DNA from: Nanobdellota archaeon
GTDB lineage: Archaea > Nanobdellota > Nanobdellia > SCGC-AAA011-G17 > JACPNG01
Direction: 5' to 3'
Length of the DNA: 16,536 nucleotides
NCBI GenBank assembly: GCA_038046345.1
Contig: JBBSWJ010000008.1
Span: 1-16,536, forward strand
Below the pieces are notes generated by a model. That model did not search any database and was not told the origin of the DNA. It worked only from the letters and a program-made list of their open reading frames with translations. Positions 3,457 through 12,419 of the stretch are shown here, piece after piece. The stretch's first letter is position 1. Each line of letters opens with the position of its first letter. The position numbers and the translations under genes were made by a program.

Positions 3457-3759
3457 ATGGAAGAGTTAATCACTCCGTTTTTGATGCGTATACCAGTAGA
3501 TAGAGATACTCAAGATATTCTTGATAGGCTATTTAATATTTACGGTGATATAAACATAAACACATTAGTGGGTACGCTGAGGAAAAGGTTCAAGTTTAAT
3601 CCTACAGCTATTTTGTCAAGGGAAGGATTTCAAGATATTGTGTTAGCTCGTGGTCGTTATAGATCAAGGTTAGTCTCCGAGGATGTGCATTATTATCCAA
3701 TTCATGGTGTATATATAAAAAAGGATGACAGGTTTATTTACACATCCAAGCCAGATTAA
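3457..3759 (+). CDS. Hypothetical protein (100 aa)
   Basis: ATG-started ORF 22 nt after the previous stop, filling the gap before the tRNA promoter; no motif recognised. Confidence 0.6.
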   Translation: MEELITPFLMRIPVDRDTQDILDRLFNIYGDININTLVGTLRKRFKFNPTAILSREGFQDIVLARGRYRSRLVSEDVHYYPIHGVYIKKDDRFIYTSKPD

Positions 3760-3772
3760 TTTCATGGAAAAG

Positions 3773-3780
3773 TTTATAAT
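3773..3780 (+). promoter_or_regulatory. BRE-TATA of tRNA-Gly
   Basis: GGAAAAG-TTTATAAT; predicted TSS about 3801-3802, giving a ~12-nt leader before G1 at 3814. Confidence 0.6.
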
Positions 3781-3813
3781 CAATAATAAGCGGTTGTTAT
3801 GAAAATAACATAT

Positions 3814-3945
3814 GCACCGGTAGTCTAATGGCCAGGAGTGCAGTTGGTGAACAACCGTACTGGCAAATAGAGGCCTTCCAAGCCTTTGATCTGGGAAATG
3901 CTTAGTGCTACTGAGCGTTCAGAAATTCGAATCCCGGCCGGTGCA
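3814..3945 (+). tRNA. tRNA-Gly(TCC) with two introns (3837-3866 at 23/24; 3896-3925 at 53/54)
   Basis: Removing both introns gives a 72-nt cloverleaf: GCACCGG TA GTCT AATGGCCA GGAT A GAGGC CTTCCAA GCCTT TGAT CTGGG TTCGAAT CCCGG CCGGTGC A. Each intron forms a bulge-helix-bulge (GCCA/TGGC; TCTG/CAGA). No encoded CCA. Confidence 0.92.
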
Positions 3946-3992
3946 CTTATTATCAAGGTAATGAGGTGAACCAGCGTCAAGTTGTGCTAATA

Positions 3993-7974: not shown

Positions 7975-8061
7975 TGGGTCTGCGAGGATTTGAACCCCGG
8001 TTTACTCCTTTCACCATTACCAATAGGGGGGAGTTGTTCTATCCAGCTATACTACAGACCC
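7975..8061 (-). tRNA. Intron-containing tRNA, most likely tRNA-Arg(CCT); 14-nt intron 8010-8023 at 37/38
   Basis: GGGTCTG TA GTAT AGCTGGATA GAAC A ACTCC CC CCT A[TTGGTAATGGTGAA]A GGAGT AAAC CGGGG TTCAAAT CCTCG CAGACCC A. A20 in the D-loop fits Arg. tRNA status is near certain; the isotype is less so because position 33 is C. Confidence 0.75.
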
Positions 8062-11149: not shown

Positions 11150-11276
11150 AATAATACTAAAATTTAATCTTATATATTTATTGTGCTTTTAGATAATCAT
11201 TTATTGCTTTCAAAGAATTAAATGGTTTTTAACTAGAGTCATTTATTATAGAATCTCACACATTCAAGTAATAAAA

Positions 11277-11360
11277 TGCGGGGAACAGGGTTTGAACCTG
11301 CGTAGGCACTAAGCCAGCGGATTTTGAGTCCGCCCCGTTTGGCCGCTCCGGCATCCCCGC
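11277..11360 (-). tRNA. tRNA-Leu(CAA)
   Basis: 84-nt class II cloverleaf: GCGGGGA...GCGGA CT CAA AA TCCGC, long variable arm, GCAGG TTCAAAC CCTGT, TCCCCGC A; no intron, no encoded CCA. Confidence 0.96.
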
Positions 11361-11381
11361 ATAGTCAAAGGATGTTTAAAT

Positions 11382-11412: not shown

Positions 11413-11431
11413 GTTCATTTATCGTGTAAGG

Positions 11432-11703
11432 AATGGACTAGGTTGGGAATTTGGCCTTATTCCTGTCACCGCAAACAGGCCTCATGGCGGGACTGAAGCT
11501 TGGGAGGCGAGGTTAGTATTGATCATCAGTCCTTTGCTGGACGTAGAAGTCTTGTCCTCTTCGGCTGTGATGTCTGTGAACCGAGTCAGGGCAGGAATGC
11601 AGCAGCTCTTAGCAGACATGATAGCGCTTAGGGGGGCGCAGGATGGAGAAAGGCAATGGGTAGCTGATGGTTAAGCTATCTTCCACTTTCAGGCGTGTCC
11701 ATT
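11432..11703 (+). ncRNA. ffs: Archaeal SRP (7S) RNA
   Basis: Helix 8 with SRP54-binding motif TCAGG-GCA-GGAA-TGC-AGCAG (11586-11605); helix 1 AATGGAC/GTCCATT; Alu helix GGAAT/ATTCC with loop-loop complement GGCCT/AGGCC; long helix-5 pairings; T-run at the 3' end. Confidence 0.92.
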
Positions 11704-12419
11704 TTTTCTAAGTCCCATTCAATAAGTCTGACAAATTCTTCAAGAGCTTTACAAAAATGTTTACGATAATCTAAACTTTGGTCACCATTAGCAAACTTCA
11801 TTGCATGATAATCCTTGTTGTCTTCGGTTTTTTCTAGTTGAGCTGCTCTATGTACAGCATAACCATGTATTACATGTCTTTGAAGTATAAAACTATCAAG
11901 TTTACAAATTTGTTGATGCAAATCACTCTGAAATGCTGGTACGCTTAGGTGATCAAGTTGGTCTGATAGTTGATCATCTTCATGATGTGATTCAATTTCA
12001 TCTTCAAGGGCCTTATAGGCTAGGTATATCAACTCATCAATATCTGGGTCTTCGTGTTTAGCTCTGTTTGTATAGGTATCATTCATATCCCAGTAGACTA
12101 GTTTTGCAATCAGTTCAACAAGTTCGTAAGCATCTTCAAATTGGTCTTCTAATCCTTCATGGGGAATATCTGCTCCTGCGATTACCCTTCTTTTGATCAC
12201 TGGTTTTATTCTTTCTAAAACTGGTTTGTATCCAGCTTCATGAACACCAAGGCTATCAAAATAAGCTCTTAGCTTTTGCGAGATGTGCTCTTTTTTCTCG
12301 CATTTAGTTATATTACTGAAGATAGCATAGCATATCCCATCTATTTGGCTGCCAGAATGAGTCCAAGTATCATGAGTCAATCGTGGTCCAATTTCTTGTT
12401 GTATATGTTCGGTAAGCAT
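11676..12419 (-). CDS. Hypothetical protein (247 aa, acidic, His-rich, predicted helical)
   Basis: Long ATG-started ORF with no recognised motif. Confidence 0.7.
   Translation of the reverse strand: MLTEHIQQEIGPRLTHDTWTHSGSQIDGICYAIFSNITKCEKKEHISQKLRAYFDSLGVHEAGYKPVLERIKPVIKRRVIAGADIPHEGLEDQFEDAYELVELIAKLVYWDMNDTYTNRAKHEDPDIDELIYLAYKALEDEIESHHEDDQLSDQLDHLSVPAFQSDLHQQICKLDSFILQRHVIHGYAVHRAAQLEKTEDNKDYHAMKFANGDQSLDYRKHFCKALEEFVRLIEWDLEKMDTPESGR

Follow-up and report, generated by a model that had tools for sequence, protein, structure and literature searches.

Two BHB introns, in the D-arm and the T-arm, interrupt the only tRNA-Gly(UCC) gene found in a DPANN archaeon with a single alpha-type EndA

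Introduction

Multi-intron tRNA genes are established in the Thermoproteales, where one tRNA can carry up to three introns and where intron transposition has also been described (Sugahara et al. 2007/2008; PMC4033280). A second system is that of ARMAN-2, whose tRNA-Pro(GGG) is interrupted at 53/54 and at 59/60, with strict BHBs (PMC3239211). In the same source, alpha4-type EndAs are described as requiring the strict hBHBh' motif (PMC3239211). The third is the DPANN set of Kaneta et al. 2018 (PMC5829648), a survey that includes Woesearchaeota and Pacearchaeota. That paper ties the alpha4 EndAs of several DPANN lineages to increased tRNA gene disruption (its Fig. 7), finds tRNA sets incomplete with standard tools, and attributes the disruption trend to an 'L3' loop. 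Multi-intron tRNAs and alpha4 EndAs in DPANN archaea are thus already published. A first-pass annotation of the DNA studied here had placed multi-intron tRNAs mainly in Thermoproteales and ARMAN, and, given what Kaneta et al. 2018 (PMC5829648) found on DPANN alpha4 EndAs, that view is out of date.

The window, by which we mean the whole stretch of 16,536 nt that was analysed, is contig 8 of an archaeal genome of 821 kb (34% G+C, 97% complete). We conclude, with a probability of about 0.9, that positions 3814-3945 (+) are the single functional tRNA-Gly(UCC) gene of this ~0.82-Mb, putatively Woesearchaeota-type DPANN archaeon and that its two BHB introns would be cut out by the archaeon's own EndA. 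The gene resembles those of the Thermoproteales in having several BHB introns per tRNA (two to three in theirs) at non-canonical sites, in being found only by BHB removal, and in being needed for the decoding set. The Thermoproteales differ in their (alpha-beta)2 EndA with a Crenarchaea-specific loop, their many relaxed motifs and their evidence of transposition, whereas the present genome encodes one alpha-type EndA, and its Gly gene has 3-4-3 geometry in both motifs and shows nothing that points to transposition. With ARMAN-2 the gene shares a DPANN host, a tRNA with a pair of introns, of which one is at 53/54, and a strict hBHBh' motif. Unlike the present case, the EndA of ARMAN-2 is a three-unit epsilon2 form with an ASL loop, the other intron of its tRNA lies in the T-loop and not in the D-arm, and the isoacceptor is a different one. 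The likeness to the DPANN set of Kaneta et al. 2018 extends to the superphylum, the single alpha-type EndA and the raised share of non-canonical and multiple introns. In contrast to the L3 account of that survey, the EndA here has the M. jannaschii length between Tyr and His, and is six residues shorter than that of N. equitans before the catalytic His. The two-intron architecture of tRNA-Gly(UCC) is not described in the part of the paper that could be read (PMC5829648).

Results and Discussion

The gene at 3814-3945 (+) is made of three exons (23, 29 and 20 nt) and two introns of 30 nt each, all on the forward strand. Exon 1 (3814-3836) contains the 5' strand of the acceptor stem, the 5' strand of the D-stem, the D-loop and G22 G23. 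Intron 1 (3837-3866) follows at site 23/24 in the D-arm. Exon 2 (3867-3895) consists of the 3' end of the D-stem, the anticodon arm with the anticodon TCC at 3877-3879, a 4-nt variable loop and the 5' strand of the T-stem. Intron 2 (3896-3925) is located at site 53/54 in the T-arm. Exon 3 (3926-3945) supplies the T-loop TTCGAAT, the 3' strands of the T-stem and the acceptor stem, and the discriminator A73; CCA is absent from its gene-encoded 3' end. When the exons were joined in silico, ARAGORN called the spliced 72-mer as tRNA-Gly(tcc), with a clean cloverleaf. All stems of the 72-mer are intact: the acceptor stem has seven perfect base pairs, the D-stem is GTCT/GGAT, the variable loop has 4 nt, and the T-arm reads CTGGG-TTCGAAT-CCCGG. 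The conserved bases T8, A14, G18 G19 and T54 T55 C56 are present. The discriminator is A, and A73 is the archaeal-type Gly discriminator. The anticodon sits in the 7-nt loop CTTCCAA, which is unchanged in more than 100 orthologs across the order. The first-pass annotation had given the same coordinates, the same exon and intron lengths and the same tRNA-Gly(TCC) identity, and these were confirmed to the base, the identity by the ARAGORN call on the 72-mer.

On the precursor, ARAGORN calls no tRNA at 3814-3945, and Rfam at the gathering threshold misses the gene when the window alone is searched. The expectation that standard pipelines would miss it is borne out by these two results. In the whole-genome search, RF00005 returned exactly 3814-3945 of contig 8, with a score of 29.2 bits for the unspliced locus against a cut-off of 29. 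A score only just above the cut-off is expected, because 60 bases are inserted.

We also ran a blind, SPLITS-like census in which every BHB candidate was removed, singly and in pairs. The census re-found Gly(UCC) with the same two junctions, so a check of the SPLITS type, which had been suggested at the first pass, arrives at the same gene. It also recovered the intron-containing Ile(UAU) and Ala(UGC) genes of the same genome and revealed introns at many other non-canonical sites. It failed to recover Phe, Val(UAC), initiator Met, Ser(GCU/GGA) and others; the genome therefore probably conceals further tRNA genes that are disrupted, split or permuted. A second Gly(UCC) gene was not found in the 97%-complete genome by ARAGORN, the covariance model or the BHB-removal census, which, because the census is incomplete, amounts to none by three methods and not to proven absence. 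The proposal that this gene is the only GGA decoder is upheld at that level. GGA is the commonest Gly codon (39.7% of Gly codons), and GGG accounts for 15.3%. Standard annotation would leave the archaeon seemingly unable to decode its commonest Gly codon. Once the gene is recognised, the decoding set is complete, and tRNA loss or host dependence in DPANN archaea is less likely to be inferred in error.

The BHB layout that we scored runs from a 4-nt exon strand H through a 3-nt bulge, in which the cut follows the second base, to an inner helix, a 4-nt intron strand H' and a second 3-nt bulge. Both introns have the 3-4-3 geometry, with a 4-bp central helix and two 3-nt bulges on opposite strands (all coordinates +). 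In intron 1, the central helix GCCA/TGGC is formed by 3831-3834 and 3861-3864, and the bulges GG|A and AA|A occupy 3835-3837 and 3865-3867. The inner helix GTGC/GTAC (3838-3841/3857-3860) is followed, after a 1x1 mismatch, by GTTG/CAAC (3843-3846/3852-3855). The outer helix of intron 1 consists of only two base pairs (T-A and G.T), so the 3' bulge is weakly defined, and as an hBHBh' motif it is borderline strict. Intron 2 forms a strict hBHBh' motif. It has a 5-bp outer helix (3885-3889/3927-3931), the central helix TCTG/CAGA (3890-3893/3920-3923), the bulges GG|A and AA|T (3894-3896 and 3924-3926) and a 10-bp inner helix (3897-3906/3910-3919). Its central helix and bulges are those originally assigned; the inner and outer helices had been given as 9 and 4 bp and measure 10 and 5 bp, which is a trivial correction. 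Each intron module adopts its BHB when folded alone, the intron 1 module at −13.7 kcal/mol. In the full-length fold, the T-stem competes with the central helix of intron 2, and the conformer with all BHBs has an energy of −41.9 kcal/mol versus −50.8 kcal/mol for the minimum free energy structure.

BHB-shaped candidates as such are frequent: across 120 intron lengths, about 19167 were counted per 339 kb of positions left unmasked, which is a fifth of the genome. From this frequency, the chance that a fixed pair of junctions is BHB-shaped is ~5e-4. We estimate the probability that both inserts, with their ends fixed, are BHB-shaped by chance to be of the order of 1e-7 to 1e-6. Such a double coincidence is very unlikely because the intron ends are fixed independently, by colinear intron-less orthologs. 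Two other placements of intron 1 came out of the census, one of 28 nt at 24/25 and one of 38 nt at position 13. Both were rejected, as they have a poorer BHB with an outer helix of 0 and break the colinearity with the intron-less orthologs.

The orthologs come from an order-wide comparison in which 240 genomes were searched for Gly(UCC); the genome holding the window is called G000 here. Three genomes of the same family (G002, G016 and G013) have an uninterrupted Gly(UCC) gene that is colinear with exon 1, exon 2 and exon 3 at the exact predicted junctions, with compensatory changes in the stems. Exon 1 is colinear with the uninterrupted ortholog loci L004, L007 and L012. An uninterrupted 3' half was found in 112 of the 240 genomes, including 11 of the 16 in the family of G000. 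The colinearity of intron-less orthologs at both junctions upholds the assignment of the two introns to the non-canonical sites 23/24 and 53/54. Inserts at 23/24 were found in two other genomes, G035 (31 nt) and G037 (30 nt), and inserts at 22/23 in G023, G010, G065 and G216. With four genomes having the D-arm intron at 22/23 and three having it at 23/24, the junction seems to have slid by one base. Inserts at ~37/38 are present in G023, G005, G010, G015 and G030, and inserts at 53/54 in 10 credible genomes from 8 families. Orthologous introns are 16-31 nt long. Many of the 53/54 introns share a 5' AAAT(G), which hints that they descend from one ancestor. Two further matches to the order-wide pattern, in G197 and G236, were discarded as spurious; they are not tRNA-like, and both genomes carry an uninterrupted gene.

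A D-arm intron and a 53/54 intron occur together in G035, G065, G216 and G000. The ortholog in G023 (L003 1425-1563) has three introns, at 22/23, ~37/38 and 53/54, and that in G010 (L009 1401-1520), which belongs to the same family as G000, has two, at 22/23 and ~37/38. Within one genus, G013 has no intron and G015 has an intron in the anticodon loop. The same isoacceptor with 0, 1, 2 or 3 introns (22/23, 23/24, ~37/38, 53/54) in one order is a natural series. It includes presence and absence within a single genus and is suited to studying how archaeal tRNA introns are gained and lost and how they slide.

The central helix at 53/54 co-varies among the orthologs as TCTG/CAGA, TCCG/CGGA and CCTG/CAGG; 42 of 44 cells are paired, with P=0.00045 by partner shuffling, a value that is not a clean probability because the genomes are related. 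Over the whole 53/54 BHB in 11 genomes, 92.9% of the cells are paired, seven pairs (25 cells) are double-changed, and none of 500 shuffles reached as high a value, to which the same caution about relatedness applies. In slid-partner controls, which retain the relatedness, the pairing falls to 12-51%. The central helix at 23/24 is GCCA/TGGC in G000 versus GCTA/TAGC in G035 and GCTA/TAGT in G037; with three genomes only, a compensatory change at this intron is suggestive. The outer helix is 2 bp at all three 23/24 introns. The recurrence of a Gly(UCC) gene with both a D-arm and a 53/54 intron across at least five of the order's families, with strong covariation, is modestly new.

A single EndA locus is present in the genome, on contig C32 (L021 1246-1788); it is an ORF of 180 aa, of the alpha type, with PF02778 and PF01974. 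The protein aligns end to end with the alpha4 EndA of M. jannaschii (1a79; E=1e-37) with a single one-residue gap, and the catalytic triad Tyr/His/Lys is intact. Nine residues lie between the catalytic Tyr and His, the same number as in M. jannaschii. Because this spacing is only nine residues, the enzyme has neither the ARMAN-2 insertion nor the Lys/Arg-rich stretch of six residues by which the N. equitans enzyme is extended. The specificity loops CSL/L1, ASL/L2 and N. equitans-type L3 are absent from the EndA alignments, CSL being judged solely by colinearity with 1a79. A search of all ORFs of at least 50 aa by phmmer (E<=50) found no second EndA-like protein, either as a beta subunit or as a fusion/tandem form. 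Typing of the EndA, which had been proposed as a check, thus gave no beta, three-unit or loop-insertion form but a single alpha-type enzyme colinear with M. jannaschii alpha4. The enzyme presumably works as a homotetramer. Also modestly new is that the only EndA is, as judged from the alignments, of the insertion-less, M. jannaschii-like alpha type.

The first-pass annotation had held that a gene of this kind needs a broad-specificity endonuclease. This is not supported by what we find, as both introns have the 3-4-3 core on which strict enzymes act and the sole EndA is a 180-aa alpha-type protein without specificity insertions. The only room for doubt is the 2-bp outer helix of intron 1. It could mean that the gene is real and that intron 1 is removed by a relaxed-specificity activity, owing to an unrecognised accessory subunit or to a new specificity determinant of EndA. 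The recurrence of the 2-bp outer helix at all three 23/24 introns would fit this alternative, as would the many other non-canonical intron sites in the genome and an EndA in which neither the known L1/L2 loops nor an L3 extension of the N. equitans type is present. However, the 3-4-3 core and the inner helix of intron 1 are intact, 2 bp may suffice, and no second EndA-like ORF was found. The EndA subunit type has also been argued to contribute little to substrate range (Kaneta 2018, PMC5829648). We consider a relaxed activity unlikely and favour removal of both introns by the alpha-type EndA.

A broader proposal, which we put forward tentatively as possible but doubtful, is that the insertion-less alpha4 EndA would be the sole enzyme for the many non-canonical BHB introns of this genome, including D-arm introns with a 2-bp outer helix, and that at least five families would have retained the double-intron Gly(UCC) gene or evolved it anew. 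If a plain alpha4 EndA does suffice, intron proliferation in Woesearchaeota-type archaea would be independent of the EndA loop innovations that the tRNA/EndA co-evolution model invokes. The gene provides a strict substrate and a second one whose outer helix is minimal, both well defined, with which the range of an insertion-less alpha4 EndA can be tested.

The two introns have the same length of 30 nt and the same GG|A...AA| junctions, and a common origin or mobility had been suggested from these features. The gene would then be real, with copies of one mobile intron that had moved between the D-arm and T-arm sites. Transposition of introns from tRNA to tRNA has been published for the Thermoproteales (Fujishima 2010, as cited in PMC4033280). 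In the present gene, however, a local alignment of intron 1 with intron 2 is no better than shuffles (P=0.68), and the ungapped identity is 8/30. A comparison of the intron sequences with the rest of the genome found no further copy of either, the best matches being <=13 nt at E>=0.3. The signature is mostly made of exon bases: GG and the last bulge base belong to the exons (G22 G23, G52 G53, A24 and T54). Its intron part, the first A and the last AA, recurs in the majority of the genome's credible introns, including those of the Ile, Leu and Lys tRNAs and one other. The match in length (30/30) is a coincidence, as orthologous introns at the same sites vary from 16 to 31 nt and equal length is not conserved. 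A single mobile intron is thus highly unlikely, and we regard the two introns as separate BHB introns of a functional gene.

The gene, with its introns, is also present in contigs that two other studies assembled, and two of these contigs (X4 and X7) are 100% identical. A third contig (X9) is ~96% identical over 3757-3951. It has one change within the gene, 3859 A>G, versus four changes in the 57 nt upstream; the in-gene change turns a U-A pair of the intron 1 inner helix into U.G, so the pairing is kept. These copies bear on whether the locus could be a decaying tRNA pseudogene with two insertions, GGA and GGG being read by another tRNA. The marginal RF00005 score would be consistent with decay. 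Against it, the ~4% diverged strain preserves the pairing at its only in-gene change, all stems are intact, and the inserts have exact BHB geometry and co-vary in relatives. There is also no other UCC gene found in the 97%-complete genome in which GGA is the commonest Gly codon. Taken together, these observations make a pseudogene extremely improbable, and a functional, intron-containing gene remains our reading of the locus. In the same groundwater sample, a second contig (record 2 of run X3) agrees with the window only over 3812-3831 and 3926-3945, and 88 other letters separate these two blocks. It is probably the Gly tRNA gene of a co-occurring relative, with different introns.

The gene sits in a 262-nt gap flanked by two ORFs on the same strand. 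A putative archaeal TATA box, TTTATAA, is located at 3773-3779 (+), 35-41 nt upstream of the mature 5' end, and is preceded by the purine-rich GGAAAAG. The orthologous genes at L005, L013, L015 and L017 are preceded, at a distance of 33-40 nt, by a similar box, RTTTATAA. We infer that TTTATAA is the promoter of the Gly(UCC) gene. A precursor of ~132 nt plus leader and trailer would be transcribed from this box. The 3' part of each intron would then pair with the exon bases just 5' of its 5' splice site, giving a 4-bp helix, and the intron hairpin would close. The BHB would use G19-A21 and G22 G23 A24 at site 1, and positions 48-53 and T54 at site 2. Because G22, G23 and A24 are in bulges and positions 48-51 are in an intron helix, the D-stem and T-stem would form only after splicing. 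EndA would cut after the second bulge base, at 3836|3837, 3866|3867, 3895|3896 and 3925|3926. RtcB is present in the genome and would ligate the three exons. After trimming of the ends, the CCA-adding enzyme, for which an archaeal-type gene is present at C21:29489-29830, would complete the 3' end. Transcription, cleavage, ligation and the order of these steps are predicted here from the gene structure and the enzymes encoded.

Other interrupted tRNA genes were observed along with tRNA-Gly(UCC). The tRNA-Gln(UUG) gene of the same genome (C7:28-129, −) is interrupted in the D-arm, at linear position 23, by an intron of 27 nt with H GGCC/GGCT and an inner helix of 8 bp. Intron 1 of the Gly gene lies in the same arm and almost at this site, so the D-arm may be a hot spot for introns in this genome. 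In another genome of the comparison, G021 (L018 ~1000-1160, −), a tRNA with the anticodon loop CTTTTCGAG, probably Glu-UUC, has a D-arm insert and lies directly 3' of the end of another tRNA. A second intron-containing tRNA is present in the window at 7975-8061 (−). ARAGORN calls it Gly(ccc) without the intron mode and Ser(tga) with it, and Rfam scores it at 44.9 bits, with ~14 extra bases placed in the anticodon loop. When 11-17 nt were removed exhaustively, many different anticodons resulted, among them Arg-CCU, Phe-GAA and Gly-CCC, and a clean 3-4-3 BHB was not obtained; this tRNA may carry a relaxed motif. The window also contains an archaeal SRP RNA at 11431-11704 (+; 132.5 bits), which is divergent from a tRNA-Leu(CAA) gene at 11276-11361 (−), 70 nt apart.
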